Part shown: in pieces, positions 1 through 15,981 of the stretch
Layout of the letters: every line of letters starts with the position of its first letter
How positions within the stretch are numbered: the stretch's first letter is position 1
Assembly: GCA_003221005.1 (NCBI GenBank)
Contig: QHTZ01000025.1
Span: forward strand, 1-15,981
DNA length: 15,981 nucleotides
From: Gemmatimonadota bacterium
GTDB taxonomy: Bacteria; Gemmatimonadota; Gemmatimonadetes; Gemmatimonadales; GWC2-71-9
Direction of reading: 5' to 3'
Position numbers and translations under genes: made by a program
Notes under the pieces: model-generated
What the model saw: only the letters and a program-made list of their open reading frames with translations
Databases searched by the model: none
Told to the model about the DNA's origin: nothing

Positions 1-2
1 CC

Positions 3-713
3 GCCCACTGGCGCCTCACCAGCACGCCATTCCGTACGCCGGACGAGTGGGCGGCGGCCATAACCGCCTACCTCGGCCAGGCGGGCCACTCCACCCAGGA
101 AGTGCGCGCGGCAGTGGTCGCGTCGGTGGTACCGCAGGTGACGCAGAGCGTGTGCGATGCCGTCGAGCGCGCGACCGCGACTCGGCCCCACGTGGTGGAC
201 GCTCGCTCGCGGCTGCCTATCACCCTCGACGTGGACGAGCCCCTCACCGTCGGCGCCGATCGCATCGTCAACACCCTCGCTGCGTCGCAACTGTTTCACC
301 GCGACACGATCGTGGTGGACTTCGGCACCGCAACGACGTTCGACTGCATCACCGGGGACGGGCGCTTCATCGGGGGCGTGATCATGCCGGGGGTCCGGAC
401 CGCGTCCGACGACCTGGTGCGTAAGACGGCGAAACTGCCGGCCACCGAGCTCACGCCGCCGCAGCACGTGATCGGGCGCCGTACGGAAGACTGCATCCGC
501 TCAGGCGTGCTGTGGGGCGCGGCGGACGCGGTCGACGGTTTGGTGCGCCGCATCAGGGCCGAGTGGCCGAACAGCGGGAAGCCGCACGCGATCGCGACCG
601 GGGGCCTCGCTGGCCTCATCGTGCCGCTCACGCGCGAGATCGAGTCGGTGCATCCGGATCTCACCCTCACCGGGCTCCGGCTCGCGGCCGGCGCGCTCGG
701 CCTCAGCTGGTGA
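3..713 (+). CDS. coaX: Type III pantothenate kinase (5'-truncated by window edge)
   Basis: Frame is open from position 3 (AHWRLTSTPFRTPDEW...). CoaX motifs SVVP, VGADRIVN, VVDFGTATTFD, GGVIMPG and ATGG are present. Stop TGA 711-713. Confidence 0.95.
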   Translation, partial: AHWRLTSTPFRTPDEWAAAITAYLGQAGHSTQEVRAAVVASVVPQVTQSVCDAVERATATRPHVVDARSRLPITLDVDEPLTVGADRIVNTLAASQLFHRDTIVVDFGTATTFDCITGDGRFIGGVIMPGVRTASDDLVRKTAKLPATELTPPQHVIGRRTEDCIRSGVLWGAADAVDGLVRRIRAEWPNSGKPHAIATGGLAGLIVPLTREIESVHPDLTLTGLRLAAGALGLSW

Positions 714-1639
714 CAGAAGCCTCCGCTCGCGCCCTCAACGCCTGGCGCCGCTGGGGCTATCGCGTGCTTCCAGGCGACCTGTTCTCCTACGTGTTGCACC
801 TGCGTCCGGCCGAGTGGCCCATCATGGCGGGGCACACGGCGCTCGGGTATGTGCTGGCCGTCGGGATCACCGGCGTGGCGCGTGGCGCCTGGCTGCCTCA
901 GGCGCTGACGGGACTCGTGATATGGGTGGTGTTCCTGAACGGCGGCACGCTTGCGATCAATAGCGTATTCGACCGGGACGAGGGAGACATCGGGTACCTC
1001 ATCACGCCCCCCGCGCTGCCGCGATACCTCTTGGCCTTCAGCCTCGCGTTGCTCGCGGGAGGCCAGCTGCTCGCGCTCTTCCTGCCGCGGACCTTCCAGC
1101 TCGACTATGCCGTCTGCTTCCTGCTCTCGATCCTCTATTCGGTGCCGCCGTTCCGCTTCAAGGCCGTGGCCGGCGTTGACTGGATCATCAACATGTGGGG
1201 CTTCGGGACGCTCACGCCCCTTGCCGGCTGGGCGGCGACGGGGCGGCCGCTGGATCTGGGGCATGCGCTGATCCTCGTGGCGTTCTGCCCCCTGTTCGCG
1301 GCATTGTATCCGCTTACGCAGCTGTATCAGTTCGACGAAGACCGGCGCCGCGGCGATCGCACGCTGGCGCTGATCCTCGGAATGCGGACCAGTCTCGCGC
1401 TCGCAATCGGCTCAACACTCGTGGGGTTCGCGCTGTTCACGTGGGCCGCCGCCCGGCTCGATGTGGGTGCCTGGGGGCTGGCGCTCGGCGTCCCGCTCGC
1501 TGCATGGCTCGCCGTCCTGCTGCCGTGGTACCGCGGGCACCGCGCGTGGACGCCACGGGAGCATCAACGAGGCATGTACCGCGCGCTAGCCGCTTGGGCT
1601 CTCACCGACCTCGTGGTCCTGTTGGTGTTTGCCCGCTGA
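710..1639 (+). CDS. UbiA-family membrane prenyltransferase (~309 aa), substrate unknown
   Basis: GTG 710 overlaps the coaX stop (GTGA). Many TM helices, first Asp-rich motif NSVFDRDEGD, YSVPPFRFK motif, second motif YQFDEDRRRGDRT. Confidence 0.85.
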   Translation: MTEASARALNAWRRWGYRVLPGDLFSYVLHLRPAEWPIMAGHTALGYVLAVGITGVARGAWLPQALTGLVIWVVFLNGGTLAINSVFDRDEGDIGYLITPPALPRYLLAFSLALLAGGQLLALFLPRTFQLDYAVCFLLSILYSVPPFRFKAVAGVDWIINMWGFGTLTPLAGWAATGRPLDLGHALILVAFCPLFAALYPLTQLYQFDEDRRRGDRTLALILGMRTSLALAIGSTLVGFALFTWAAARLDVGAWGLALGVPLAAWLAVLLPWYRGHRAWTPREHQRGMYRALAAWALTDLVVLLVFAR

Positions 1640-1656
1640 AGCGGCTGCTGTAGATT
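1629..1656 (+). promoter_or_regulatory. Putative sigma70-type promoter (TTGCCC-N16-TAGATT) for a leaderless transcript
   Basis: TAGATT 1651-1656 lies 6 nt before ATG 1663. No Shine-Dalgarno sequence. Confidence 0.35.
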
Positions 1657-1662
1657 GACAGC

Positions 1663-2280
1663 ATGTCCGCCACCGTCGCGCCGCAAACGACAGATCGCTC
1701 CGATTTCCGTACCGTCATCACTGGTGGGACGAAGTTGGGTCTCATCACGGCAGCGGCGGTCGTGCTCTACCTGCTTGCCTCGAAGCACCTTCCCGGCACC
1801 GGCGGGGTACGGAGCGGCGTGGAAACGCTCGTCGTTCTGGCGGCGGGGGTCACGGCGGCCTTCCTTCCCGGTCTGTGGTGTGCCGCGCGCAACGCCGAGG
1901 GCATTGCCGGCGCCGCCGCGATGGGGTTGTGGGGTACAGTCGTGTTCTCGGTGATCGACATTGTGCTGCTGCGACCCGTCAGAGCGTATCCTTGGACCTG
2001 GGACGCGGTCGGCGGCGGCACGACGTGGTGGTACCTGCCGATGTGGTGGATCCTCGGAACGTTCCTCGCCTGGATGGGCGGCACGCGCATCGCGCTGAGC
2101 GCCTCTCGCGGTGAGGCGACCGGGCTGCGGGTGGCAGTGCTGCCGCTTGCCGGCGCCGTCGTCGTCGCCGCGCTCGCGAAGGTCGCGGGTCTGGCCGTGG
2201 TGTTGCCGGTTGCGGCGGGCGCGGGCTTTGCCGTCACCCTGTCGGCGCTCGCCGTCATCGCCCTCGCCCGCAGCGCGTAG
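1663..2280 (+). CDS. Hypothetical integral membrane protein (205 aa, ~6 TM)
   Basis: Fills the gap between genes, has hydrophobic helices and GC3-biased codons. Trp-rich motif YPWTWDAVGGGTTWWYLPMWW. Confidence 0.8.
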   Translation: MSATVAPQTTDRSDFRTVITGGTKLGLITAAAVVLYLLASKHLPGTGGVRSGVETLVVLAAGVTAAFLPGLWCAARNAEGIAGAAAMGLWGTVVFSVIDIVLLRPVRAYPWTWDAVGGGTTWWYLPMWWILGTFLAWMGGTRIALSASRGEATGLRVAVLPLAGAVVVAALAKVAGLAVVLPVAAGAGFAVTLSALAVIALARSA

Positions 2281-2292
2281 CAGGAGGGGGCG

Positions 2293-2577
2293 GTGCCCCG
2301 CTGGCTGGCTCACCTACTGGTCGTCTGCGGATGGCTCCTCACGCCGGTCCTGGCGTGGGGAGCTTCGTATGTGGGCCTGTGGCTTGGCGCGCGCGTCGCG
2401 CTGCGCTTCGCGCACCCGCTGACGATGCTTGGCGTGGCGGGGCTCGTCGCGGCGGTGTGCGGGTTGGCCGCGCTCGCCATCTGGGTGCGGTTCATGCGCC
2501 GCGTCCCGCACCTCCTGTCGCATCTCATGGCCGCGCGCACGTCAGAGGAACCTCGCGCGGCGACCGCCGCCGACTGA
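2293..2577 (+). CDS. Small hypothetical membrane protein (94 aa, 2 TM)
   Basis: AGGAGG RBS at 2282-2287 before GTG 2293. Two hydrophobic segments. Confidence 0.75.
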   Translation: MPRWLAHLLVVCGWLLTPVLAWGASYVGLWLGARVALRFAHPLTMLGVAGLVAAVCGLAALAIWVRFMRRVPHLLSHLMAARTSEEPRAATAAD

Positions 2578-2582
2578 CGGTC

Positions 2583-3542
2583 GTGCGGCTTCCGCTGCTC
2601 GCCCTGTGGCCCGCGCTGCTCGGCGCCCAGGGGCGGGGGCGGGACCTCGAGCTCCACCTCGGGAGCTGGTACGGCGACAATCGCGCCCACACGTACGAAT
2701 TCCGCACCAGCTCCCCCCTCTCGGGCGCGCTCACGCACGGCTTCACCGCGGCGGTGCTGTTGAACGACAGCCTCGGGCGCCGGCGCGCCTTCTACGGCGC
2801 CGGATACGAGATCCAGGCCTTCCGTGGTCGCCGGGCGCTCGCGCCGTACGCCCTGGTGGGCGCCGCGCTTGGTCTCTCGACCGACACGGCGAAGCAGCAG
2901 CTCGGCGTCATGTGGAGCCTCGGCGGGGGAGTCGAATGGCGGCCGGCGACCTGGTTCGCCATCGGTGCGGAAGGGCGCTACCGTCTGGAGGATCGCGGAC
3001 CCCGGGGCTTCTGGCGCCCCGGCCCCGACGCTCGCAGCGGGCTCGGTGGCTCGCTCGGCATCTCCGTCGGCATCGGGAGGCGGGAGCCGAGAGGCGGGAG
3101 CGCAGCGTATCCGCCTCCCGTCTTCGCTCTCCCGCCTCCCGGAACGCTGAGCGGCAACGCCGGCGACGTGGTCGAGACCGCGCTCGACGTCCTGGGAACA
3201 CCCTACCAGTGGGGCGGTACCGCCGACAACGGCTTCGATTGCTCCGGGCTGATCCAGTATGCCTACGGGCAACACGGGATCCGCCTGCCGCGCCGCAGCC
3301 GCGATCAGGGGCAGGTGGGCGCCGAGGTCACGCCGGCAGTCGAAGCCCTTCGCCCGGGGGACATCCTGCTGTTTTCCATGCGCTCGGGCGCCGGCGTCAC
3401 GCACGTCGGGCTGTACGTCGCCGACGGGAAGTTCATCCACAGCACCAACAACGGCGTGAAGCTGTCGCGGTTGGAGCCGCATGATCCCGAGGGCGCCTAC
3501 TGGCTCGCCCACTGGGTGGGGGCGCGGCGGGTGATACCGTGA
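2583..3542 (+). CDS. Outer-membrane beta-barrel-like domain fused to NlpC/P60 (C40) peptidoglycan peptidase (~319 aa)
   Basis: GTG 2583 gives the signal-peptide-like MRLPLLALWPALLGAQ. Alternating strands (APYALVGAALG, WSLGGGVEW, FAIGAEGRY, GGSLGISVGI), a Pro-rich linker, then GTPYQWGG, GFDCSGL, HVGLY and FIHS (Cys-His-His triad). Confidence 0.85.
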   Translation: MRLPLLALWPALLGAQGRGRDLELHLGSWYGDNRAHTYEFRTSSPLSGALTHGFTAAVLLNDSLGRRRAFYGAGYEIQAFRGRRALAPYALVGAALGLSTDTAKQQLGVMWSLGGGVEWRPATWFAIGAEGRYRLEDRGPRGFWRPGPDARSGLGGSLGISVGIGRREPRGGSAAYPPPVFALPPPGTLSGNAGDVVETALDVLGTPYQWGGTADNGFDCSGLIQYAYGQHGIRLPRRSRDQGQVGAEVTPAVEALRPGDILLFSMRSGAGVTHVGLYVADGKFIHSTNNGVKLSRLEPHDPEGAYWLAHWVGARRVIP

Positions 3543-3547
3543 ATCAC

Positions 3548-3636
3548 CGTTATACGTCGCCACGTCGCTACGTTTTACGTATGCATCGCAGTCTCGTACA
3601 ACGTAGCGACGTACAACGTAACGTCGCCTTAGCGAC
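3548..3636. repeat. ACGT-based short-period repeat forming an inverted repeat/hairpin
   Basis: ACGTCGCTACGTTTTACG (3562-3579) pairs with CGTACAACGTAGCGACGT (3595-3612), 17/18 matches. Eight ACGT copies in 3554-3624. Small hairpin GTCGC-CTTA-GCGAC at 3623-3636. Confidence 0.8.
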
Positions 3637-4024
3637 CTGTCTCGCCTCCGCCGCCTGCCTCTTCGGCTCCCGCCCCCCCTCACCCATCCGCGGCTACCGC
3701 GTGCTGATCGAGGCGCACGACTCCCTCAGTGAGTACCTCGCCGACGTGCTCTCGCACCGGGGGTTCACGGTCCGGCGCCGGATCGAGGGGGGCAGCGCTC
3801 CGACGGCCGCCGTCATCACGTACACGTACCACTACCACGACGGGGGAGCGTCCCCGGTCACGTGGTTCAATGTGGTCCTGGCGGATACCCGCAGCGGCGC
3901 AGTCGTGGCGACGGTCTCGGCGCCGATCGATTCGCTCGGCGCGACCCCCCGGGCCCGCGCCCACAGCCTCGCCGACTCACTGGCCGCCCGGCTGGAATCA
4001 CGCACGCCAACACTCCCCCCTTGA
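3581..4024 (+). CDS. Putative lipoprotein (alternative start GTG 3539)
   Basis: Hydrophobic stretch ending LASAAC (lipobox-like). The mature part has an alpha/beta pattern ending in VVLADTRSGAVVATVS plus a helix, reminiscent of CsgG/TolB-N-like domains. Stop TGA 4022-4024. Confidence 0.65.
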   Translation: MHRSLVQRSDVQRNVALATCLASAACLFGSRPPSPIRGYRVLIEAHDSLSEYLADVLSHRGFTVRRRIEGGSAPTAAVITYTYHYHDGGASPVTWFNVVLADTRSGAVVATVSAPIDSLGATPRARAHSLADSLAARLESRTPTLPP

Positions 4025-4049
4025 CACTGCCGCCGCGCGTGGAGAGATT
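4021..4049 (+). promoter_or_regulatory. Sigma70-type groESL promoter, TTGACA-N17-GAGATT
   Basis: Consensus -35 at 4021-4026, 17-nt spacer, -10-like GAGATT 4044-4049, directly upstream of CIRCE. Confidence 0.75.
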
Positions 4050-4061
4050 GTCCCCGGCGCG

Positions 4062-4088
4062 TTAGCACTCACCTGACAAGAGTGCTAA
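4062..4088 (+). promoter_or_regulatory. CIRCE element (HrcA operator)
   Basis: Perfect TTAGCACTC-N9(acctgacaa)-GAGTGCTAA upstream of groES. Confidence 0.97.
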
Positions 4089-4142
4089 TAACATAAGAAG
4101 TAATCGCTTAGGTGAACACGCACCGAGGTGGAGGTTCCTACC

Positions 4143-4457
4143 ATGGCACCGGGGACTGCATCGAAAACCAAACTCAAGATCTTCCCGCTGGCCGACCGCG
4201 TGGCGATCAAGCCGCTCGAGGAGACCGAGACGATGAAGGGCGGTCTCTACATCCCTGACACGGCGAAGGAGAAGCCGATCCAGGGCGAAGTGATTGCCGT
4301 TGGAACTGGACGGCGGGAAAAGGGCGAAGTCGTGCCGATGGAGTTGAAGGTCGGCGACCGGGTGGTCTACGGCAAATACAGCGGTACGCAAGTCGAACTC
4401 GAAGGGGAAGAGGTCATCCTGATCAAGGAATCTGACGTCATTGCCAAACTCGCCTGA
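4143..4457 (+). CDS. groES: Co-chaperonin GroES (104 aa)
   Basis: GGAGG 4130-4134 before ATG 4143. Motifs [38 protein letters not shown]. Confidence 0.98.
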
Positions 4458-4487
4458 GGCGTCGCCTCGAGGCAGGAGGAATTGCAG

Positions 4488-6122
<1,635 letters not shown>

Positions 6123-6150
6123 GGCTAGACTGGTAGACGGCTAGTAGACG
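6123..6150 (+). repeat. Short degenerate TAGAC/GGCTAG repeats after the groEL stop
   Basis: TAGAC at 6126, 6134 and 6145. GGCTAG at 6123 and 6139. Confidence 0.5.
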
Positions 6151-6162
6151 TGTGGACCGACG

Positions 6163-6195
6163 GCGCCCCGGGAGCAATTCCGGGGCGCTTGTCTT
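6163..6195 (+). terminator. Rho-independent terminator of groESL
   Basis: Stem GCGCCCCGGGA / TTCCGGGGCGC with a GCAA tetraloop (6174-6177), followed by TTGTCTT. Confidence 0.8.
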
Positions 6196-6231
6196 GAGCC
6201 AGGGCCTTCTGGACGTGAGTATCTTGTCGGT

Positions 6232-6525
6232 GTGAGCCGTGTCCTGGCCGCAGTCACCTGGTTACTGCTCCTCGGCGAGCGCCTTCCCGCCCAGAGTAGC
6301 GGGCCGCGGCGGCTCCACCTCCTGGTGGGTGACAGCCTGTGGCTCACGTTGGGCGACGGCGTGTGGATGGTCTACGGCCTGCGGCTGGGAGGCGACAAGC
6401 TCACGATTTCTGGCGGCGATCTCGACAAACCGGTAACGCTGCGGCGCGTGGGTCCCGCCACGGCCCGCCCCGACACCCTCGCGATTCCTCCGAGCCCACC
6501 CGACACCGCGCGGGCTTGGGATTGA
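6232..6525 (+). CDS. Small hypothetical exported protein (97 aa)
   Basis: Signal-peptide-like N-terminus (MSRVLAAVTWLLLLGERLPAQ), beta-rich core and Pro-rich tail. TATCTT -10-like hexamer 6 nt upstream. Convergent with the kinase gene. Confidence 0.6.
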   Translation: MSRVLAAVTWLLLLGERLPAQSSGPRRLHLLVGDSLWLTLGDGVWMVYGLRLGGDKLTISGGDLDKPVTLRRVGPATARPDTLAIPPSPPDTARAWD

Positions 6526-6528
6526 CGG

Positions 6529-8409
6529 CTACCGCTTGAGCTCCTGCACGCCGGCCACCCGCCAGCCGGTCGGCGTCTTGGTGAACCGCATCGTCAGGAG
6601 CGCGTGCTCTTCCCGCTGTGAGCCGCCCCCCTCCGGCACGAAGCGATAGTCGGCGAGCACCCTCGCCCGGGCCACCGTGTTCTCTACCCGGAGCGACTCC
6701 GCCGCATAGCTCGCCGCGAGCTGGGTGGCGCGGCGGAAGAAGCTTTCCCAGCTGGCCGCGTCGCGCGCGGTCATCGACGGGAACACCAGTCGCAAGTTGG
6801 CCACGCGCTCGCTCGCGACGGCGCGCTCGAGGTCGAGGAGCAGGACGCCGATGGCGGCGCGCGGCTCGGCCGGCTGGGGACTGGGCGGCGCGACCCCGGC
6901 TGCTACTCCCACCTGCTCGGCATCGTGCGCCGCGAGGGTCGCGAGGGGGTAATCCATGGCCGCGAAGAGCGATTCCGCGCGTGCCAGCGACGTTCCCGCC
7001 CGGGCGGCCTCAGGGCGCGTGGCCAGGCCTTGGACGACCGGCGTGGCCCGCTCGATCGCGCGCCGGGACTCGTCCCGCAGCTGCTCCGCTTCCTGGCGGG
7101 CCTTGCGATACTCAGACACCGCCCCCAAGTAGCCACTCGACGCCCGCGCCTGGTCCCCGGTGCGGAGGGCCACCTCGGCCGTCTGGAGCATCGCATCCGC
7201 GAGGACGATCGACCGCACGTTGTTCTTCGCTGCGCCCACTCGGCGGGCGCGCTCCCGCACCGCCAGGGCGGAGTCGCGGAGCGCGACGAGCGCCAGGTTG
7301 ACACGCGGCGGCAGCCTGGTGGCGAGCAGCTGATCCAGGGCCGTCGGCGCGTCGGTTGGGTGGTCCGATGTGACGCCCGGAAACGGACCGCCGGCCTGGG
7401 GGGGCAGCAGCGCGGGCTGGACCGCGCCGCGCGACACGTAGGACAGGGCGAGCACCACCGTCGCGAGCGCCGACAGCACCACCACGCGCCACTTGAGGGG
7501 TGTGTGGGTGATGAGCCGCAGCAGGGGCAGGGGGATCGGCGTCCACCGCGGGGACAGGCGCTGCGTGGTGTCCGACGCTCCCGACAGCGCGGCGCGGATC
7601 CCGAGCAACGTGTGCTGCATCTGCCGCGCCGACTGGTAGCGGTCTTCCGGAACCTTGTTGAGCGCCTTCCCGACGACGCGCTCGAGTCCCGCGGGAATGG
7701 ATGGCGCCATCGTGCGCAGGGGTTTCGGATCCGTCGTGAGCACCTGATACAGGACGCCGTGGACCGTCTCGCCTTCGAACGGCTTCCTATAGCTGAGGAG
7801 CTCGTACAGCAGGCAGCCGACCGAAAATAGATCGGTGGCGGGGGTGATGGGCCCGTTCGTGACCTGCTCCGGGGCCATGTAGTTCGGCGTGCCGACGATC
7901 GCTCCTGATCCCGTCACATCGGCCGACTGCAGGCGCGCGATCCCGAAGTCCATGATCTTGACCCGCCCGTCGGCGGCCACGCGCACGTTGGAGGGCTTGA
8001 TGTCGCGGTGGATCACGCCACGCTCGTGCGCATAGGCGAGCCCTTCCAGCAACTCGATCACGATGTCGAGCTTGCGCTCGAGCGCGAGCGGCTCGTTTGT
8101 CGCGATGAGGCTGCTCAGGTCCCGGCCCTCGACCAGCTCCATCGCGATGTAGAGCTGGTTTTCGGCTTCGCCGAGGTCGTACAGGGTAACGAGGTTGGGG
8201 TGTTGCAGCACGCCCGCGGCGCGCGCCTCTCGCAGGAATCGCAGGCGCGCGTCGCCGGTTTTGCCGATGCGGGTGCCCAACAATTTGAGCGCGACGTACC
8301 GGCGGATGACGGTGTCATACGCCTTCCACACGACACCCATCGCCCCTTCGCCGATGAGGTCGTGCAGCTCGAACTTGCTGACACGGCGGAATCGTTCCGT
8401 TTTCGTCAT
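6529..8409 (-). CDS. Hanks-type Ser/Thr protein kinase with one TM and an extracytoplasmic helical plus NTF2-like region (~626 aa)
   Basis: Motifs GEGAMGVV, VALK, HRDIKPSN, DFG, GTPNYMAPE and DLFSVG. TM segment VVVLSALATVVLALSYV. ATG 8409 (MTKTERF) is the likely start. Confidence 0.93.
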   Translation of the reverse strand: MTKTERFRRVSKFELHDLIGEGAMGVVWKAYDTVIRRYVALKLLGTRIGKTGDARLRFLREARAAGVLQHPNLVTLYDLGEAENQLYIAMELVEGRDLSSLIATNEPLALERKLDIVIELLEGLAYAHERGVIHRDIKPSNVRVAADGRVKIMDFGIARLQSADVTGSGAIVGTPNYMAPEQVTNGPITPATDLFSVGCLLYELLSYRKPFEGETVHGVLYQVLTTDPKPLRTMAPSIPAGLERVVGKALNKVPEDRYQSARQMQHTLLGIRAALSGASDTTQRLSPRWTPIPLPLLRLITHTPLKWRVVVLSALATVVLALSYVSRGAVQPALLPPQAGGPFPGVTSDHPTDAPTALDQLLATRLPPRVNLALVALRDSALAVRERARRVGAAKNNVRSIVLADAMLQTAEVALRTGDQARASSGYLGAVSEYRKARQEAEQLRDESRRAIERATPVVQGLATRPEAARAGTSLARAESLFAAMDYPLATLAAHDAEQVGVAAGVAPPSPQPAEPRAAIGVLLLDLERAVASERVANLRLVFPSMTARDAASWESFFRRATQLAASYAAESLRVENTVARARVLADYRFVPEGGGSQREEHALLTMRFTKTPTGWRVAGVQELKR

Positions 8410-8437
8410 CGAGCCTGTGACCCAGGGGCGCAGGTCC

Positions 8438-8466
8438 AATGTGCACCCGCGGGCCGTGACCGGCAA
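8438..8466 (-). promoter_or_regulatory. Possible kinase-gene promoter, TTGCCG-N17-CACATT
   Basis: On the minus strand, -35-like at 8466-8461 and -10-like at 8443-8438 with an exact 17-nt spacer, in the 78-nt intergenic gap. Confidence 0.35.
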
Positions 8467-8487
8467 CGGGTTGTGGGCCCGTGCTCG

Positions 8488-9663
8488 TCAGCGTGTGGCC
8501 CAATCGTAGATGCGGCCCAGCATGGCACGCGTTGCTGCGTCCGGAGTTACGTCCCGGCGTGGCAGCACGCGCTCGGCGGTGCGGAGAAAGCCCTCCCGGC
8601 TCATCCGGGCGTCGTCCGAGCCGCCCCACGCGAACGGGGGCACGTACTTGGGCGGCCGCACCGCGCCGAACACGCTCGCGCCCGTGCCGATCACCGTCGC
8701 GGTGCCGAGCAGCGTCCCGATCGCCGTCTTGGCATGGTCGCCGATGAGGCTGCCCAGATTCAGGAGACCGGTTTCGATGGCCGTGGACCCGACCTCGAGG
8801 CGGGCGGGGCCGTACGTGTTCTTCAGGTTGGACGTGATCGTGCCCGCGCCGAGATTCGCCCAGCGTCCCACGACGGAGTGACCGACGAAGCCGTCGTGGG
8901 CCTTGTTCGCGAAACCCAGGAACACGCTGGTCACGAGCTCGCCCCGGATCACGCACCGGGGCCCGAGCGCCGAGCCGCGAATCGGCCCGCCCAGCACGCG
9001 TGTGCCGGCGCCGATCCAGAGCGGGCCCTCGAGTCGCGTGCCCGCCCGCACCTCCACCCCCGGCTCGAGCACCACCGGACCGGCGCGCGTGTCGAACACG
9101 ACGCCGGGCTCGACGGCCGCGTCCCGGAGCAGCACCGCCGCGGGATCGCCAATCACACTGCTGCCGCGCGGAATCGCGTCCGAATCTCCGCCTCCGAGCA
9201 GGGCCGCGAGGTCTTGGGCGAGCAGCTTCTCGAGCGTGCGGATCAGATCGAACACGCCGTGCAGGACCACGCCGCGCACCTCGATCGCCATCGCGCCGGG
9301 CTGCGGCGCATCCCACGTCGCGCCCGGTCCAATGCCCCAGCCGACGGTGACGCCTTCGCAAGTGAGCCGGAAGGCGCCGGTGGGGAGAGCCGGCGCCACG
9401 CCCTGGGGCGCGAAAGTAGAAGAGCCGATGATCGCCGGTCCGGTAACGGCGTGCCGCGCCGAGACCGGCGGCACTCCCGGCTCCACGAAGGCAGCGAGAT
9501 GGGGGAGCGCGAAGATTTCCTGCGCCGCGGTGCCGGCGAACCGCTCCCACCGCTCACGCACGAGATAAGCGCCAGCGCGGAGCTCCGAGAGCGGCCGCGC
9601 CCCGGTAAACGGCGCCCACGCCGGCGCCGGGTCCGGGTCCAGCAGATAAAGCGCGCGGGTCAC
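8488..9663 (-). CDS. GlmU-like protein: degenerate nucleotidyltransferase-like N-domain plus hexapeptide (LbH) acetyltransferase (~391 aa)
   Basis: GTG 9663 overlaps the upstream stop (GTGA). N-terminal PFTGARPLSELRAGA, FDTRAGPVV, NKAHDGFVGHSVVGRWANLGAGTITSNLKNTYG, GDHAKTAIGT. Confidence 0.85.
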   Translation of the reverse strand: MTRALYLLDPDPAPAWAPFTGARPLSELRAGAYLVRERWERFAGTAAQEIFALPHLAAFVEPGVPPVSARHAVTGPAIIGSSTFAPQGVAPALPTGAFRLTCEGVTVGWGIGPGATWDAPQPGAMAIEVRGVVLHGVFDLIRTLEKLLAQDLAALLGGGDSDAIPRGSSVIGDPAAVLLRDAAVEPGVVFDTRAGPVVLEPGVEVRAGTRLEGPLWIGAGTRVLGGPIRGSALGPRCVIRGELVTSVFLGFANKAHDGFVGHSVVGRWANLGAGTITSNLKNTYGPARLEVGSTAIETGLLNLGSLIGDHAKTAIGTLLGTATVIGTGASVFGAVRPPKYVPPFAWGGSDDARMSREGFLRTAERVLPRRDVTPDAATRAMLGRIYDWATR

Positions 9664-10670
9664 AGGTGCTGCACGAGCTGCTTCAACTGATCGGCGCGCC
9701 CGGTCGGCATCACCAGGGTGTGGCCGTTGGCGCGCACGACGATCATGTCCTCGACCCCGGCAACCGCGACGTGCTCGCTCTCGGCCCAGATCACGCAGCG
9801 CTTTACATCGTCCGCCACGGTGGCGTTCCCCACCACCACGTTGCCTCGCGCATCGGTCTTGCGAATGCGCAGCAGCGCATCCCAGGACCCGATGTCGTCC
9901 CACCGGAATGCTCCCGTGACGACCGCTAGGCGCTTGGTGCGCTCCAGCACGGCCACGTCCACGGCGGCCGGACGCACGCCGGCGAAGAAGCCGCTCGCGT
10001 CTCCTGCGGCGAGGGCGGGCCAGCCGCCCTTCAGCTCACGCGCGTAGGCGCCGGCCTCTCCCAGAAAGCGCGCGACCCCCCAGGCGAACAGCCCAGTGTT
10101 CCAGAGCGCGCCGCGCTGGCGCAGCAGAGCGGCGCGGGCCGCGCTCGGTTTCTCCACGAAGCGGCGCACCGTCCGCCCGGCGCCGAGCGGCTTGCCCGGG
10201 ACGATGTAGCCGTACCCCGTGTCGTTGCGCGTCGGCTTCACGCCGACGGTCACGAGAACGTCGTAGTCTTCGGCCACGCCCAGCGCGGTGCGGGCCGCGC
10301 TGCGGAAGGCCCGCTCGTCCCCCACGGCCCAGTCGGCGTGGAGCGACAGCATTTGGGCGCCTGGGTCCTGCCGCGCGATCCAGTGCGCCGCCCACGCGAG
10401 CGGGGGTGCGGTCGAGGCCGCCCGCGGCTCCGCGAAGACTTGCGCCCGCGGCACGCCCGGGACGAGCCCGGCGACCTGGTCCACCAAGAAGGGCCCGGTG
10501 AGGACCACGACCCGCTCCGGCGGCACGAGACCCTCGAGGCGATTCACCGTCTGGGTAAGGAGCGGGCCCTCCCCCGCGAGCGCGAGTAGCTGCTTGGGAC
10601 GCGCCGGTGTGGACAGGGGCCAGAAGCGCGTCCCGGACCCGCCGGCGAGGATCGCCGCCCAGACGCTCAC
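9660..10670 (-). CDS. manC: Mannose-1-phosphate guanylyltransferase, monofunctional (no PMI cupin domain) (~336 aa)
   Basis: GTG 10670. Motifs ILAGGSGTRFWPLS..RPKQ, EP..ASTAP, TGYGYI, FVEKP, WNTGLF, WDDIGSWDAL. Confidence 0.88.
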   Translation of the reverse strand: MSVWAAILAGGSGTRFWPLSTPARPKQLLALAGEGPLLTQTVNRLEGLVPPERVVVLTGPFLVDQVAGLVPGVPRAQVFAEPRAASTAPPLAWAAHWIARQDPGAQMLSLHADWAVGDERAFRSAARTALGVAEDYDVLVTVGVKPTRNDTGYGYIVPGKPLGAGRTVRRFVEKPSAARAALLRQRGALWNTGLFAWGVARFLGEAGAYARELKGGWPALAAGDASGFFAGVRPAAVDVAVLERTKRLAVVTGAFRWDDIGSWDALLRIRKTDARGNVVVGNATVADDVKRCVIWAESEHVAVAGVEDMIVVRANGHTLVMPTGRADQLKQLVQHL

Positions 10671-11071
10671 GGAGGAGAGGCGCCGTCCCGCGGCGCGTCG
10701 CCCAGCATCGCGGCGACGCGCGCGGTCAGCTTGGTCGGGCTGAAGGGCTTGGTGAGCAGTGTGGCGTCGAGGCTCTTGGCGGCAGCGAGCACGCCCTCGG
10801 CGCCTTCGGCGGTCAGCACTATGACAGGCAGGGCGCGGGTGGCCTGGCTGGAGCGCAGCTCGCGCAGCAAGTCGAGTCCGGACCCGTCGGGGAGGTGCAG
10901 ATCGAGCAGCAGGCCGTCGCACGGTGCGGTGAGGGCGGCGCGGGCCTCTGCCAAGTTGCGCGCGATGCTCACGCGGTAGCCGAGCTCCTCCAGGTGCGGG
11001 CGCAGCAACAGCCCGATGTGCGGCTCATCGTCGACGACGAGGAGGTGCCGCGGCACAGGCGGGGGCGCCAC
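10667..11071 (-). CDS. Single-domain response regulator receiver (CheY-like, 134 aa)
   Basis: LVVDDEP, LLLDLHLPDGSG (phospho-Asp), VIVLTA, TKPFS. No output domain. Confidence 0.92.
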   Translation of the reverse strand: MAPPPVPRHLLVVDDEPHIGLLLRPHLEELGYRVSIARNLAEARAALTAPCDGLLLDLHLPDGSGLDLLRELRSSQATRALPVIVLTAEGAEGVLAAAKSLDATLLTKPFSPTKLTARVAAMLGDAPRDGASPP

Positions 11072-11086
11072 GCGGTCAGCTCCGGA

Positions 11087-11440
11087 TCAGAGCAGGCCGG
11101 CGATCGCCGAGCGGTGGCGGCGGAGGTCGTACAGCAGCGCGCCCACGTTGGTGGACGGCTGCACCAGGACGACGAGCAGCGCATCGGCGTTCAGCACGGA
11201 GACCACCGCGAGCCCGCCGCCGAATTCGAGCACACCGGTGCCGAAATCGCCGCGGCCGCCCGCTTCGCCGAGCTGCGTCATGCCGTTGATCACCGAGGGG
11301 AGCAGGGCGGCGACGTTTTCGGCGTCCACGCCGTCCTTCGTGCGGGAATCGATGGGGAGCCCGTCCCGGCCGACCACGACGACGGCGTCGACGCCGGCGC
11401 GCCGGCTGAGCGCCTCGACCACGTCCCGGATCGTCGCCAT
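11087..11440 (-). CDS. Roadblock/LC7 domain protein (MglB/MglC-like, 117 aa)
   Basis: GVDAVVVVGRDGLPID, ENVAAL, VLEFGGG and NVGALLYDLRR fit the roadblock/LC7 pattern. Confidence 0.88.
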   Translation of the reverse strand: MATIRDVVEALSRRAGVDAVVVVGRDGLPIDSRTKDGVDAENVAALLPSVINGMTQLGEAGGRGDFGTGVLEFGGGLAVVSVLNADALLVVLVQPSTNVGALLYDLRRHRSAIAGLL

Positions 11441-11449
11441 ACGGCGGCC

Positions 11450-11478
11450 AAGCTAGGACGCGCGAAGGTCGAAGTCAA
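11450..11478 (-). promoter_or_regulatory. Sigma70-type promoter, TTGACT-N17-TAGCTT, for the roadblock operon
   Basis: Minus strand -35 at 11478-11473 and -10 at 11455-11450. ATG 11440 follows after 9 nt. No SD. Confidence 0.7.
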
Positions 11479-11492
11479 GCAGTGACCGCGGG

Positions 11493-11522
11493 TTGACCCG
11501 CTCCCGCCGGCGCTGATATTTT
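11493..11522 (+). promoter_or_regulatory. Sigma70-type promoter, TTGACC-N18-TATTTT with extended TG, for the lipoprotein-serS unit
   Basis: TTGACC 11493-11498 and TG-a-TATTTT 11514-11522. ATG 11531 follows after 8 nt. No SD. Confidence 0.65.
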
Positions 11523-11530
11523 CCCGCCGG

Positions 11531-12109
11531 ATGCGCTCCCGCCTCTGGTCTCTCGCGCTCGCTCTCGGCTTCACTGGCCTCACTCTGCTCGCGGCGTGCA
11601 ACACCTCGCCGCTGCCGCCCGCGGCCTTCGTGAACGTCATCGACACGGTGACGTTGTACGCGCTCGACGGCACGCCGCTCGGCACGCCGTCGGCCTACAG
11701 CATGAACGGACGCCGTCTGGTCCGCACCGAAACCTCGATCGTGTTCGATTTCGCCTTCAACTTCGACTCGCTGGGCCGGCCCGTGTTCCTGCCCAGCGGC
11801 GCGATCCGCTTAGGCACCGGCAACGCCAACACGGACCCTGGCTTTCAGTCGTCGTCGGCGACGTTCGCCAACGTCACCATCGCACCCACCGATGGCTACG
11901 AGGCCGACAAACCGTTCCTCGCGGTAGTGGGGAACGTGACGGTGGCGCGCTCGCGCGTGCAGACGTGCGCGGACGGCAACACCCTACCGCTCTACGCGAA
12001 GTTGCAAGTCCTCGCGGTCGATGTCACGGCGCGCACGATCCAGTTCCAGATCCTGGTCAACCAGAATTGCGCGTACCTCGGGCTCGCTCCCGGAATCCCC
12101 GACCGCTAG
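11531..12109 (+). CDS. Lipoprotein (192 aa), possibly HmuY-like fold
   Basis: Signal peptide with lipobox LAAC. Beta-rich body with FDFAF, FANVTIAPTDGY and YAKLQV. Confidence 0.8.
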   Translation: MRSRLWSLALALGFTGLTLLAACNTSPLPPAAFVNVIDTVTLYALDGTPLGTPSAYSMNGRRLVRTETSIVFDFAFNFDSLGRPVFLPSGAIRLGTGNANTDPGFQSSSATFANVTIAPTDGYEADKPFLAVVGNVTVARSRVQTCADGNTLPLYAKLQVLAVDVTARTIQFQILVNQNCAYLGLAPGIPDR

Positions 12110-12113
12110 CCGC

Positions 12114-13400
12114 GTGATCGACGTCCGGCGGCTGCACTCCGCGCCCGGCGAGGTGCGGGCGGCGCTCGCCCGGCGCGGAGATCCGACCCTCCCGAAGCTA
12201 CTGGACGAGCTCGAGGCGCTGGACATGCGGCGCCGCGCGTTAGCTGGCCAGCTCGACCAGCTCAATGCCCAGCGCAACGAGGCGGCGCGCGCCGACGGCC
12301 GCGTCATCAAGGACAAGGGCGCGTTGCCGCCGGCAGTGGTGGAGCAGCGGCGGCAACTCGGCGCCCGGATCAGCGCGCTCGAGGCCGAGCTGCGCGAGGT
12401 CGAGGCCGGCGTCGACGAGAAGGCCCTGTTCGTGCCCAACCTCCCGCTGCCCGAGCTTCCCGACGGTGACGCGGCATGTAACGTCGTCGTCCGCGCCTGG
12501 GGCGAGCCCGCTCCCGCGGGGGGCGTGCCGCACTGGGAGATCGGCGAGCGGTTCGGCATCTTCACGTCGGCCCGCAGCGCGAAGCTCGCCGGGTCGGGCT
12601 TCCCGCTGTTCGTGGGTCAAGGCGCGAGGCTGGTGCGCGCCCTCATCGCCTTCATGCTCGAGCTGCACACCCGCGAGCACGGCTACGTCGAGGTGGAGCC
12701 GCCCTTCGTGGTGCGGCGCGACATCATGCAGGGCACCGGCCAGCTCCCCAAGCTCGAAGCAGACATGTACCGCACCGAGCAGGACGACCTGTTTCTCATT
12801 CCGACGGCCGAGGTTCCGCTGACGAACCTGCACCGTGACGAAATCGTCGACGGCGCGGCGCTGCCGCTCGCCTACACGGCTGCCACGCCTTGCTTCCGTC
12901 GCGAAGCGGGGGCCGCGGGGAAGGATACGCGCGGGCTGCTGCGCGTGCACCAGTTTGACAAGGTGGAGCTCGTGCGGTTCTGCCGTGCCGCTGACTCGCC
13001 CGCCGAGCACGAGAAGCTCACCGGGCACGCCGAGGCGGTGCTCCAGCGGCTGGAACTGCCGTACCGGGTGGTTCTGCTCGCCGCCGGCGACCTCGGGTTC
13101 GCCAGCGCCAAGACCTACGACCTCGAGGTGTGGGCGCCCGGGGTGGGCCAGTGGCTCGAGGCGTCGAGCTCGAGCACCTTCACCGACTTCCAGGCGCGGC
13201 GCGCCAGCATCCGGTGCCGCCCACGCCCCGGCGACAAGCCTGAGTTTGTGCACACGCTGAACGCGTCCGGGGTGGCGCTCCCGCGCACCATCGCGGCGCT
13301 GTTGGAAAGCCGCCAGCAGCCCGACGGCTCCGTGACGATTCCCCGGGCGCTCGTCCCACATCTGGGAACCGACCGCCTGGTTCCCGCCGGTGGCGCGTAA
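12114..13400 (+). CDS. serS: Seryl-tRNA synthetase (~428 aa)
   Basis: GTG 12114 (MIDVRRL). N-terminal coiled coil, LIPTAEVPL, FRREAGAAGKDTRGLLRVHQFDKVEL, TYDLEVW, DFQARR, HTLNASGVALPR. Confidence 0.97.
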   Translation: MIDVRRLHSAPGEVRAALARRGDPTLPKLLDELEALDMRRRALAGQLDQLNAQRNEAARADGRVIKDKGALPPAVVEQRRQLGARISALEAELREVEAGVDEKALFVPNLPLPELPDGDAACNVVVRAWGEPAPAGGVPHWEIGERFGIFTSARSAKLAGSGFPLFVGQGARLVRALIAFMLELHTREHGYVEVEPPFVVRRDIMQGTGQLPKLEADMYRTEQDDLFLIPTAEVPLTNLHRDEIVDGAALPLAYTAATPCFRREAGAAGKDTRGLLRVHQFDKVELVRFCRAADSPAEHEKLTGHAEAVLQRLELPYRVVLLAAGDLGFASAKTYDLEVWAPGVGQWLEASSSSTFTDFQARRASIRCRPRPGDKPEFVHTLNASGVALPRTIAALLESRQQPDGSVTIPRALVPHLGTDRLVPAGGA

Positions 13401-14562
13401 CGTCGTACGGCGCTGGGCCGGTCCCCCCGCCGTCGCGGGTCTCGCGCTGCTCCTGGGCGCGCTCTCGGCGGGCTACACCTGGATCATGGTGCGACACCTA
13501 AGAGAGGACGCGCGCGAGACCAGCCGCCTGCTGGGGCGGGTGTTCGTGGGGCTCAACGACCCCCGGCCCGACGCGGGCACCGACGCCCTGCTCGAGCTCG
13601 CCACCCAGGTGCGCACGCTGGGCATCCCCATCGCCGTTACCGACACGTCGGGCCGGGTCACGGCCATGGACAACGCGCCGCCGGGATTGGGCCGCGGCGC
13701 TGACAGCCTGCGCCTGCGGCAGTGGATCGGGCAGCTCGACGCCGTCAACGACCCGATCGTCCAGCCCGGCGTCGGCACCATCCACTATGGGGCGCTCCCG
13801 GAAGCGCGGCGCTTCATTCTCCTCGCGGCGCTCCAGGGCGTCGTGTTCGTCTGTCTCGTCGCCATCGCCGTCTGGGCTTACCGGGCCCAGGTGGAGGCGC
13901 TGCGGGACCGGGTCTGGGTCGCGATGGCGCGAGAGGCGGCGCATCAGCTCGGCACCCCGCTCATGAGCCTCACGGGATGGATCGGCTACCTGCGGGAGAA
14001 TCCCGATACACCTGGCCGCGACCTGATGACTCATCTTGAGGCGGACGCGGAACGACTCGAGCGAGTGGCGAAGCGCTTCGAGCGCATCGGCCTGCCGTCC
14101 CGGACGGAGCCTGTGGCGCTGGGGGCCGCGGCGGAGCGGGTCGTCGGCTACTTTCGCCCGCGGCTCCCCACCCTGGCGAATCCGGTCGCGCTGCAGCTTG
14201 CAGCGGCGGGGCGGGGGCCGATGACGCGCGGCGACCCCGTCCTGGTCGAGTGGGCGCTCGAGGCGTTGATCAAGAACGCCCTCGACGCCCTGAGCGGGCG
14301 CGGCGGACGGATCGAAGTCCGCGTCGAGTCCGTGGGCCAGGTGGCCCGCGTCAGCGTGAAGGACGACGGACCCGGCGTGCCTCCGGACGTGCGGGCGCGC
14401 CTGTTCCAGCCCGGCGTGTCCACCAAACCGGGAGGGTGGGGGCTGGGCCTCGCGCTCACGCGCCGCATCGTCGAGCAGCAGCACGGTGGACGGGTCCTCT
14501 ATCGTCCGGGCCCCGTCGGGAGCGAGTTCGTGATCGAATTTCCCCTGGTGGCCGCGTCGTGA
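13390..14562 (+). CDS. Membrane sensor histidine kinase (390 aa)
   Basis: Two TM helices. H-box MAREAAHQLGTPL, N-box IKNALDAL, DDGPG, FQPGVSTK, GWGLGL. Overlaps the serS end by 11 nt. Confidence 0.93.
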   Translation: MARNVVRRWAGPPAVAGLALLLGALSAGYTWIMVRHLREDARETSRLLGRVFVGLNDPRPDAGTDALLELATQVRTLGIPIAVTDTSGRVTAMDNAPPGLGRGADSLRLRQWIGQLDAVNDPIVQPGVGTIHYGALPEARRFILLAALQGVVFVCLVAIAVWAYRAQVEALRDRVWVAMAREAAHQLGTPLMSLTGWIGYLRENPDTPGRDLMTHLEADAERLERVAKRFERIGLPSRTEPVALGAAAERVVGYFRPRLPTLANPVALQLAAAGRGPMTRGDPVLVEWALEALIKNALDALSGRGGRIEVRVESVGQVARVSVKDDGPGVPPDVRARLFQPGVSTKPGGWGLGLALTRRIVEQQHGGRVLYRPGPVGSEFVIEFPLVAAS

Positions 14563-14580
14563 GAGCTCGGGGACCCTAAC

Positions 14581-15981
14581 GTGAGCCTGGCGCTCAATCC
14601 CGCCCAGGAGGCAGCGGTGCGCCATGCCGGCGGGCCGCTGCTCGTGCTTGCCGGGGCCGGGTCGGGAAAGACGCGTGTCCTCACCGCGCGGATCGCCCAC
14701 CTCATTCACGAGCGCGGTGTGCCTCCCGAGCGCGTGTTCGCGGTCACGTTCACCAACAAGGCGGCGGGCGAGATGCGCTCGCGCATCGCCGGGCTGCTGG
14801 GCGCGGACCCCCGGGGCCTCTGGATCGGCACCTTTCACGCCCTCGCCGCCCGGCTGCTGCGGCGCGAAGCCGCGCGGCTCGGCTTCGGTTCCAACTTCAC
14901 GATCTACGATTCAGACGACTCGGAGTCCTTCATCAAGCGGTTGCTCGACCAGCGCGGACTCTCCCCCAAGGCCAATCCACCCCGCGCCATCCACGCCATC
15001 ATCTCGGGCGCCAAGAACCGCATGGTCTCACCGGAGGAGTTCGCCACGACCGCCGACGGGCCGCTGGCGCGCGCCGCGGCCGAGGTGTACGCCCTGCTCG
15101 GGCCCGCCCTGCAGCAGGCCAATGCCATGGACTTCGACGATCTGCTGTTGCATCCCCTGACGCTGTTCGCCCGCTTTCCCGACCGCCTGGCGTACTGGCA
15201 GCGGCGCTTCGAGCACGTGCTGGTGGACGAGTTTCAGGACACGAACGCTGCGCAGTATCGCATGGTGAAGCTGTTGGCGGCGGAGCATAGGAACCTCTGC
15301 GTCGTGGGGGACGACGACCAGGCGATCTACGGCTGGCGCGGCGCCGACGTGCGACACATGCTCACGTTCCAGCAGGATTTCCCTGGGACCACGCTCGTCA
15401 AGCTCGAGCAGAACTACCGCTCGACCCAGGTGATTCTGGACGCCGCAAACGGGGTCATCGCGGAAAACGCAGAGCGGCTGGGCAAGACGCTGTTCACGGC
15501 GCGCCAGGGGGGCGACCCCGTGATCCTGCTGACTGCGGCGGACGAGCGGGACGAAGCGCAGTGGCTCGCCGCGGAGCTGGCGCGGGTCGCGGCGGAGACC
15601 GACATCCCGTACGAGGGGATGGCGGTGCTGTACCGCACAAACGCCCAGTCGCGCCCGCTGGAAGAGGCGTTCCGTCACCGCGGCGTGCCCTACCGCCTCG
15701 TCGGGGCGGTGAGCTTCTACGAGCGGCGCGAGGTAAAGGACCTGCTTGCGTACCTGCGGCTCATCGTGAACCCGGCGGATGACGAGGCGTTCTTGCGGGT
15801 GGTCAACGTCCCCCGGCGCGGTCTCGGCGAGGCGTCGCTCGAGGTGCTGGTCCGCACCGCGGCCCACTGGCGCATGCCGTTATGCGAGGCGGCGCGCGTG
15901 GCCGATCGCATCCCCGAGCTGCGCCCCAATCTGCGGGAGACGCTCCAGGGCGTCGCGGGGTTGCTGGCGCGGTTACGCGAC
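14581..15981 (+). CDS. uvrD: UvrD/PcrA superfamily 1 DNA helicase (3'-truncated by window edge; absent from ORF track)
   Basis: Translated by hand from GTG 14581: LNPAQ, LAGAGSGKT, TFTNKAA, VDEFQDTN, VGDDDQAIYGWRGA, LEQNYRST, LYRTNAQSR, FYERREVKD. No stop seen before the window end. Confidence 0.95.
   Translation, partial: MSLALNPAQEAAVRHAGGPLLVLAGAGSGKTRVLTARIAHLIHERGVPPERVFAVTFTNKAAGEMRSRIAGLLGADPRGLWIGTFHALAARLLRREAARLGFGSNFTIYDSDDSESFIKRLLDQRGLSPKANPPRAIHAIISGAKNRMVSPEEFATTADGPLARAAAEVYALLGPALQQANAMDFDDLLLHPLTLFARFPDRLAYWQRRFEHVLVDEFQDTNAAQYRMVKLLAAEHRNLCVVGDDDQAIYGWRGADVRHMLTFQQDFPGTTLVKLEQNYRSTQVILDAANGVIAENAERLGKTLFTARQGGDPVILLTAADERDEAQWLAAELARVAAETDIPYEGMAVLYRTNAQSRPLEEAFRHRGVPYRLVGAVSFYERREVKDLLAYLRLIVNPADDEAFLRVVNVPRRGLGEASLEVLVRTAAHWRMPLCEAARVADRIPELRPNLRETLQGVAGLLARLRD

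Follow-up and report, generated by a model that had tools for sequence, protein, structure and literature searches.

The window analysed here is a stretch of 15,981 nucleotides of Gemmatimonadota DNA (contig QHTZ01000025.1 of assembly GCA_003221005.1, positions 1 to 15,981), and the gene under study, at 2583–3542 on the plus strand, encodes a protein in which a signal peptide is followed by a predicted eight-stranded beta-barrel, a flexible linker and a C-terminal NlpC/P60 domain, below called the barrel-hydrolase. The protein is probably a periplasmic peptidoglycan peptidase with an integral barrel as its outer-membrane tether, in analogy to the lipid-anchored enzymes MepS/Spr. A preliminary description of this DNA had proposed the order barrel, Pro-rich linker and periplasmic hydrolase in the layout of OmpA, and this is supported by the closed eight-stranded barrel obtained in structure prediction, by structural matches to outer-membrane proteins (OMPs) and by a lipid-facing stripe along the strands; insertion into the membrane and enzymatic activity are presumed. 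The parts of the gene are the following.

2583..2630, plus strand: signal peptide, residues 1–16, with a GTG start, one Arg, a hydrophobic core and an AQ end, read from the sequence
2640..3074, plus strand: predicted eight-stranded beta-barrel, residues 20–164, from AlphaFold2 (AF2), Foldseek, VIA-align, strand alternation and hhalign, with predicted strands at residues 20–30, 34–47, 50–61, 69–79, 86–100, 105–122, 125–138 and 151–164
3075..3167, plus strand: Gly/Pro/Ala-rich flexible linker, residues 165–195, including AAYPPPVFALPPPG, from low model confidence and composition
3168..3539, plus strand: NlpC/P60 (MEROPS C40) catalytic domain, residues 196–319, from Pfam PF00877
3240–3242, 3402–3404 and 3438–3440, plus strand: the catalytic codons of Cys220, His274 and His286 (checked)

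The gene and its catalytic domain

The frame at 2583–3542 translates to 319 residues followed by a TGA stop and is a real gene. Its GTG start lies 5 bases past the stop of an upstream gene of 94 codons, the same start is used in public gene calls, where an identical database protein of 319 residues is found, and the sequence in the language-model Atlas is identical from residue 1. Of the 8000 candidates that were scored, 1184 are homologues of the protein at E ≤ 0.001, and the best 120 of them are 295–339 residues long; except for the self-match at 100%, all of these show 64–82% identity over 83–100% of the query. The database names of the homologues, where given, are "C40 family peptidase [Gemmatimonadales bacterium]", "cell wall-associated NlpC family hydrolase", "NlpC/P60 family (protein)" or "hypothetical protein", and their precomputed Pfam domain is PF00877 alone. 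A longer frame from an ATG at 2331 (403 residues) was rejected, since it overlaps the conserved upstream 94-residue gene in another frame and since the relatives begin at the signal peptide. The G+C content across the window is 62–75%, and an overlapping minus-strand frame of 457 residues (2310–3683) is taken to be a by-product of the 72% G+C here, the homologues being carried by the plus-strand gene. No Rfam match was found in the window, and a scan of positions 1–4600 for promoters and terminators gave one site resembling a promoter, on the opposite strand, and one resembling a terminator, within the gene, which is no more than in shuffled sequences. Positions 3150–3300 and 3358–3589 have identical counterparts among short contigs of soil RNA libraries, a weak hint of transcription, as such libraries can contain DNA, and the stretches of the gene that these contigs leave uncovered are without significance.

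The C-terminal domain matches NLPC_P60 (PF00877) at residues 205–316 with an E value of 5.6e-27 and 94.2 bits against a cut-off of 23, covering 105 of the 105 profile positions. Cys220 in a DCSG motif, His274 and His286, which make up the NlpC/P60 triad, are invariant both in 36 close relatives (alignment A1) and in 27 relatives with identities down to 26% (alignment A2), and they align with the same columns of solved relatives; the domain is intact, as the preliminary description had it. Twenty-three solved NlpC/P60 chains match it at E ≤ 1e-10, among them an NlpC/P60 endopeptidase of M. tuberculosis (8idc, E 8.8e-21), Spr/MepS of E. coli (about 1e-16) and LytE of B. subtilis. As to the papain-like alpha+beta fold expected of the family, Foldseek of the domain returns Spr, MepS and LytE, at E values of about 1e-5, with a model in which the predicted local distance difference test score (pLDDT) is below 50 at residues 203–218 and 237–243. 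At the level of sequence the enzyme class, NlpC/P60, is clear, and cleavage of peptidoglycan is a presumed property. Cys220 is the only cysteine in the whole protein, and because it belongs to the DCSG motif there is no lipobox.

Residues 1–16, hydrophobic and ending in AQ, had been read as a signal peptide, and the segment matching it, AQ end included, is kept in the 36 close and 27 distant relatives of A1 and A2. Cleavage may take place near residues 15–17, judging from the sequence. The Pro-rich linker that had also been pointed out is found as AAYPPPVFALPPPG at residues 174–187, inside a stretch that is disordered in the full-length model (pLDDT below 50 at residues 169–194). The linker is rich in G, P and A throughout, with a length of 26–41 residues in close relatives and 16–62 in distant ones.

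The N-terminal domain and its predicted barrel fold

Eight long strands with a pLDDT of about 90 make up the N-terminal domain (N-domain) in the full-length model. When it is folded alone by AF2 on alignment A3, which was built from DNA references and contains 14 N-domains that are 23–66% identical to that of the window, eight strands of 11–18 residues form a closed barrel with a pLDDT of 91.1 and a predicted template-modelling score of 0.84. The predicted model is a closed antiparallel eight-stranded barrel with a hydrophobic outer face, and the check named in the preliminary description, a structure prediction with Foldseek that should return an eight-stranded barrel, therefore gave the barrel and not a soluble sandwich. 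The amphipathic strands described there as ending in GGSLGISVGIG are present, that segment being residues 155–165, and in all eight strands, in the close as well as the distant alignment, residues of one parity are hydrophobic and those of the other polar or glycine.

Foldseek against the PDB lists natural or designed transmembrane beta-barrels at all of ranks 1–50, with NspA first (E 2.7e-6), and further matches of the N-domain are OmpA (1bxw, TM-score 0.73), Ail, OmpX, OprF and PagL. A search with VIA-align against 48,161 chains gave transmembrane beta-barrels in the top nine rows, at Z 17.5–12.3, eight of them natural OMPs and one (row 6) designed. The best is NspA with Z 17.5 and a root-mean-square deviation of 2.3 over 140 residues, followed by a Legionella porin, OprF (Z 16.3), PagL (Z 16.0), OmpA (Z 15.7), the designed barrel, a Thermus OMP, OmpW and CarO. 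The first soluble barrel in this search comes at Z 12.1 with 107 residues aligned.

Soluble eight-stranded barrels, both designed ones and avidins, thus do align, at Z 9–12, and one might ask whether the N-domain is a soluble periplasmic beta-barrel or sandwich that binds a ligand or the wall, making the whole protein a soluble periplasmic hydrolase. This is very unlikely, as the soluble barrels are aligned over 98–114 residues while outer-membrane barrels reach Z 14–17.5 over 127–146 residues, and a continuous hydrophobic outward face is found in 8 of the 8 strands of 11–18 residues. The window's N-domain has no Pfam match and no aromatic residue at the end of its last strand, both of which would agree with a soluble domain, but its profile links are with OmpX and members of OMP_b-brl, no soluble family being among them.

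These links are the following. Residues 1–190 have no match in Pfam or NCBIfam. The A3 profile found five chains at E ≤ 10 among the PDB sequences, four of which contain OmpX, the best three of these at E 0.04–0.07 and the fourth at 0.7, tied with an unrelated chain. PF13505 (OMP_b-brl) is weakly matched by 3 of the 14 N-domains, with a best E value of 0.0068, that of the window not being among them. A second profile, from 21 diverse N-domains (alignment A6), gave two matches in 201 genomes from Acidobacteriota, the phylum to which a Vicinamibacterales record belongs; these are OMPs of 177 and 209 residues that stand alone. One of them passes the PF13505 cut-off (46 against 28.7 bits) as well as that of the OprF membrane domain, and hhalign pairs the N-domain with the two at 88% and 91% probability. 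The language-model Atlas places the N-domain next to OMP beta-barrel clusters, at 0.94–0.95. Weak as they are, the links to known barrels all point one way and suggest a membership in the small OMPs.

On the presumed outer side the predicted loops are 3, 7, 4 and 12 residues long, and the periplasmic turns 2, 6 and 2. The preliminary description had suggested that surface loops could gate wall cleavage, for which no support was obtained: L1–L3 have only 3–7 residues and L1–L4 are the least conserved parts of A6, with a mean top-residue frequency of 0.25–0.32, while the lumen and two periplasmic turns, T1 (0.76) and T2 (0.51), are the most conserved. Conserved positions of the N-domain are Tyr89, Gly93, Trp111, Ser112, Gly114, Gly116, Glu130, Arg132, Arg134 and Gly153, all located in strands 5–8 and mostly on the inward parity, where Tyr89, Glu130, Arg132, Arg134 and the glycines face the lumen. 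An aromatic end to the final strand, which is the beta-signal of outer-membrane barrels, is present in 12 of the 21 N-domains (F or W, then GG, GA, RK or RP), that of the window not being one of them. L4, the longest predicted surface loop (residues 136–144, positions 2988–3014), carries a motif ED-x4-GFW that is kept in a deep subclade with members from the window's own family (f1) and from family f5, for example at loci L007, L008, L090 and L091; the other subclade lacks the motif, and its L4 is shorter by about 10 residues.

PagL was considered as a template for an enzymatic barrel, being a good structural match (Z 16.0) that is also present among the Atlas neighbours. PagL uses a His-Ser pair, and such a barrel was rejected here, the positions conserved at 70% or more in the 21 N-domains holding no His and one Ser (Ser112, 81%).

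Several observations weigh against a barrel-tethered peptidase and should be set beside the above. The N-domain of the window has no Pfam match even at E ≤ 10, and the links of the N-domain to known OMPs are all weak or indirect. Since AlphaFold is able to make a barrel of any pattern of amphipathic strands, the fold evidence is not independent of the strand alternation. The last strand of the window's own barrel ends with Ile-Gly in place of an aromatic residue, and the signal peptide is short. The catalytic domain is partly poorly predicted in the full-length model, including the stretch directly before Cys220, and it reaches no equivalog cut-off in NCBIfam, RipC giving 90 of 425 bits and the MepS-type PRK10838 (NF008096) 71.6 of 186 bits. 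Finally, the evidence of expression is weak, since the soil RNA contigs might derive from carried-over DNA. Taken with these points, a peptidase on an outer-membrane barrel is still the probable explanation.

Distribution, neighbourhood and a lipoprotein counterpart

The window's own genome, which is 94% complete, has a single N-domain and two NlpC/P60 genes, of which the barrel fusion is the only one found with a signal peptide. The second gene (genome G000, contig C120, L083:1426-2823, minus strand) is of the SH3_16 dipeptidyl-peptidase type with no signal peptide seen, and its product probably serves in the cytoplasmic recycling of wall peptides. In the phylum as a whole the N-domain was detected at E ≤ 1e-5 in 171 of 401 sampled genomes, nearly always as a single copy. 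It is present in 163 of the 165 genomes of family f1, the window's own within Gemmatimonadales (161 of 163 without the unpublished genomes G057 and G182), in 4 of 94 genomes of family f2, in both genomes of f5 and in 1 of 4 of f8, and in none of the 135 genomes of the other eight families. Of the two f1 genomes that were missed, one contains part of a catalytic domain, broken off at a contig end, and the other a 38% match only. Five matches that were weaker or lay outside the family were inspected, and each is the same barrel-hydrolase fusion. Five complete-looking f2 genomes are without a barrel match; NlpC/P60 genes are found at six places in three of these five, as short signal-peptide forms or long barrel-less forms.

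The genomes of 185,579 species were also scanned, and among the best 80 of 599 confirmed relatives the N-domain is covered in records with labels beginning Gemmatimonad, plus one labelled Bipolaricaulota. No fusion was seen outside the phylum in the 201 Acidobacteriota genomes, where both matches are stand-alone, in searches that are blind to fusions on unrelated barrels. The locus in the Bipolaricaulota record (L006, CP070725.1, labelled Candidatus Bipolaricaulota, 1.7 Mb) and that in a Gemmatimonadota metagenome-assembled genome (MAG; L007) have the same barrel-hydrolase gene and share about 90% DNA identity, and the phylum label or the binning of CP070725.1 looks doubtful.

The neighbouring genes of the window are these.

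512–1639, plus strand: UbiA-family prenyltransferase, conserved upstream neighbour
1663–2280, plus strand: membrane protein of 205 residues, conserved upstream neighbour
2293–2577, plus strand: membrane protein of 94 residues, conserved upstream neighbour
3581..4024, plus strand: probable lipoprotein of 147 residues and no known family, downstream, from its open reading frame and synteny
4128–4457: groES, downstream of the lipoprotein gene

The order UbiA-family prenyltransferase, unannotated 205-residue and 94-residue membrane proteins, hydrolase and groES-groEL is kept down to 35–40% identity of the hydrolase. It is also found at locus L019 of another member of Gemmatimonadales, where the hydrolase slot is occupied by an NlpC/P60 protein of 193 residues with a LLLGAC lipobox, a linker of about 50 residues and no barrel. 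Its catalytic domain is 53% identical to that of the window, and no barrel match at E ≤ 0.001 was found anywhere in the L019 genome. A tree of 27 catalytic domains places L019 in a clade of 19 rows (support 86/92) in which the other 18 are barrel forms, the inner branching being unresolved. Rows left out of the tree were L003, with in-frame stops, L005 and L020, which are truncated at contig ends, L006, with masked bases, the long barrel-less forms L083, L084, L087 and L089 (SH3 confirmed by Pfam for L083 only), and the loci outside the phylum except L078 and L080. The position of L019 fits a secondary swap of the barrel for a lipid anchor at this locus, without proving the direction, and whichever direction the swap took, barrel and lipid anchor are interchangeable at one locus. 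For the UbiA-family protein the best partial matches in NCBIfam are geranylgeranylglycerol-phosphate geranylgeranyltransferases of the archaeal type, with an E value of 8e-7 and far under the cut-offs.

Downstream of the hydrolase the open frame of the probable 147-residue lipoprotein begins at 3539, its first 4 bases overlapping the hydrolase stop, and translation probably starts from the ATG at 3581. This gene adjoins the hydrolase gene in all five loci of close relatives (L002, L003, L004, L005 and L009), with 38–54% identity, and is beside it in close relatives only. The protein matches nothing in Pfam or NCBIfam, and its Atlas neighbours are Gemmatimonadota hypothetical proteins and one cluster with the lipoprotein motif LPAM_1. 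Two motifs were noted in it, the conserved GG[SA]-x-PTA and LADTR. It is a candidate regulator or partner of the hydrolase. In the MAG contig of L003 (L003:3-1441) both the barrel-hydrolase gene and the lipoprotein gene contain in-frame stops, which are either sequencing errors or a joint decay of the two genes. The interval 3545–3630, from the hydrolase stop to the lipobox downstream, looks AT-richer by eye, with many ACGT and the direct repeat CGTACAACGTA twice, and may be a regulatory site or merely the coding sequence of the n-region of the signal peptide.

A perfect inverted repeat, TTAGCACTC-N9-GAGTGCTAA, is located at 4062–4088, 40 bases 5' of groES, with a TTGACA at about 4022, and it had no match in 200 shuffles. 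The repeat is the consensus of the CIRCE/HrcA heat-shock operator, and with an operator of this type in front of it groESL should therefore have its own regulated promoter, outside the hydrolase operon.

The strands of the barrel are even in number and come after an N-terminal signal peptide, and because of this both ends of the barrel would lie in the periplasm. This topology bears on whether the barrel could display the hydrolase at the surface, or release it, for an attack on the walls of other bacteria. NlpC/P60 domains act as antibacterial effectors elsewhere, autotransporters show how a passenger is displayed by a linked barrel, and the passenger-carrying barrels that are known have at least 12 strands. 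Here, eight strands after an N-terminal signal peptide would bring the chain back to the periplasm, the narrow lumen is packed with conserved polar residues, the gene belongs to the single-copy core and has housekeeping neighbours, and no immunity-like pairing is kept family-wide, the downstream lipoprotein occurring in close relatives only. Display or release is thus the least probable of the explanations weighed here.

Comparison with known envelope proteins and possible role

The host genome has eight matches to the Omp85 family, two to OmpA_C and one to Lgt, and it is therefore that of a diderm with both anchoring routes. In such a cell the barrel-hydrolase would be exported by Sec as a two-domain envelope enzyme, the signal peptide being removed near residues 15–17, and the machinery for beta-barrel assembly (BAM) would insert a barrel of about 145 residues, of the small-OMP type seen in OmpX, NspA and the N-terminal domains of OmpA and OprF, into the outer membrane. 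With both barrel ends in the periplasm, the disordered Gly/Pro/Ala linker of about 30 residues would suspend the Cys-His-His NlpC/P60 peptidase under the outer membrane with peptidoglycan in reach. The barrel would then replace the N-terminal lipid of endopeptidases of the MepS/Spr type, and a housekeeping wall-cleaver would be confined to the outer-membrane side of the sacculus.

In PMC11211486 MepS is described with a lipidated Cys1 and a disordered N-terminus of about 36 residues before the NlpC/P60 domain. MepS/Spr of E. coli and the barrel-hydrolase thus have a common plan, in which an outer-membrane anchor is followed by a linker of about 30–40 disordered residues and a C-terminal Cys-His-His NlpC/P60 domain, but the anchor is an acylated cysteine in the former and a predicted integral eight-stranded barrel of about 145 residues in the latter, where a lipobox is absent. 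The window's protein stays below the bit score for the MepS-type equivalog (NF008096) as given above, and no regulation of the NlpI/Prc type is known for the barrel-hydrolase. With OmpA and OprF the protein shares the domain order, the predicted topology, the barrel fold and the Pro-rich hinge. It does not belong to the OmpA family as Pfam defines it, PF01389 being undetected in the whole protein at E ≤ 1 and in the N-domain at E ≤ 10, and where OmpA ends in the peptidoglycan-binding PF00691 the barrel-hydrolase ends in the hydrolase PF00877; the surface loops of OmpA and OprF are also much longer than the predicted 3, 7, 4 and 12 residues. The stand-alone small OMPs (PF13505; OmpX, NspA and Ail) are the best structural matches and the sole sequence-level links of the N-domain, but they end with the barrel, both Acidobacteriota examples stopping after the last strand, while the barrel-hydrolase runs on into linker and enzyme. 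The window's protein thus belongs to NlpC/P60; its fold, together with weak profile links, also places it among the small-OMP barrels, and by analogy it would be OmpA-like in layout and MepS-like in function. MipA, an integral protein of the outer membrane, is another scaffold for a wall hydrolase there, binding the lytic transglycosylase MltA; that association is non-covalent and involves another enzyme class and another barrel family, whereas the barrel-hydrolase is one polypeptide.

A layout that is exactly that of OmpA, in a genome with only two genes for OmpA_C domains, also suggests another role for a protein anchored in the outer membrane, in which the main job is not cleavage of the cell's own wall for growth. 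It might grip peptidoglycan as an OmpA-like tether, or cut another amide, by trimming stem peptides as an LD-carboxypeptidase, by releasing wall-bound envelope proteins or by acting on turnover products, and the partial matches in NCBIfam do include RipD, which is inactive and only binds, and PRK10838, a bifunctional DD-endopeptidase/LD-carboxypeptidase, all below cut-off. A domain that only binds is expected to lose its triad, which is invariant in 27 relatives down to 26% identity, and the plain NlpC/P60 lipoprotein that occupies the same slot in one relative is of the form that growth endopeptidases like MepS usually take. We therefore consider such a role unlikely, and prefer the physiological role of a tethered peptidase that would cut the cell's own wall.

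One extension of the tethered-peptidase reading would couple the enzyme to growth. BAM would insert the barrel at sites of new envelope, the barrel would then be near-immobile, as other outer-membrane barrels are, and the enzyme would thereby be placed where outer membrane is made; the linker, with its 16–62 residues, would be a ruler that restricts cuts to the outermost wall layer, and the control points would be an F-R-G motif in the conserved periplasmic turn T2, the ED-x4-GFW loop of the subclade and the co-inherited downstream lipoprotein. Taken jointly these steps are speculative, and we give them a small chance. If they hold, there would be a direct physical link between the growth of the outer membrane and the expansion of the wall.

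No description of a barrel–NlpC/P60 fusion was found in full-text literature searches, judged by titles and abstract openings; each part is familiar, and what is new is their combination. A barrel that is invisible to Pfam is present in at least 1184 proteins of the databases, so that their annotation can be improved and a profile of the N-domain could seed a new family model. How wall-cutting enzymes are kept in place in Gram-negative bacteria is an active question, for which lipid anchors, adaptor lipoproteins such as NlpI and proteolysis are the known means. With the barrel-hydrolase family, an integral barrel of the outer membrane, continuous with the enzyme in one chain, would join these as a third type of anchor, and the gene is fixed in single copy as part of the core genome of a large and mostly uncultured family of soil bacteria. 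The lipoprotein version at the same locus in L019 provides a natural control, by which the effect of the anchor type is directly testable.

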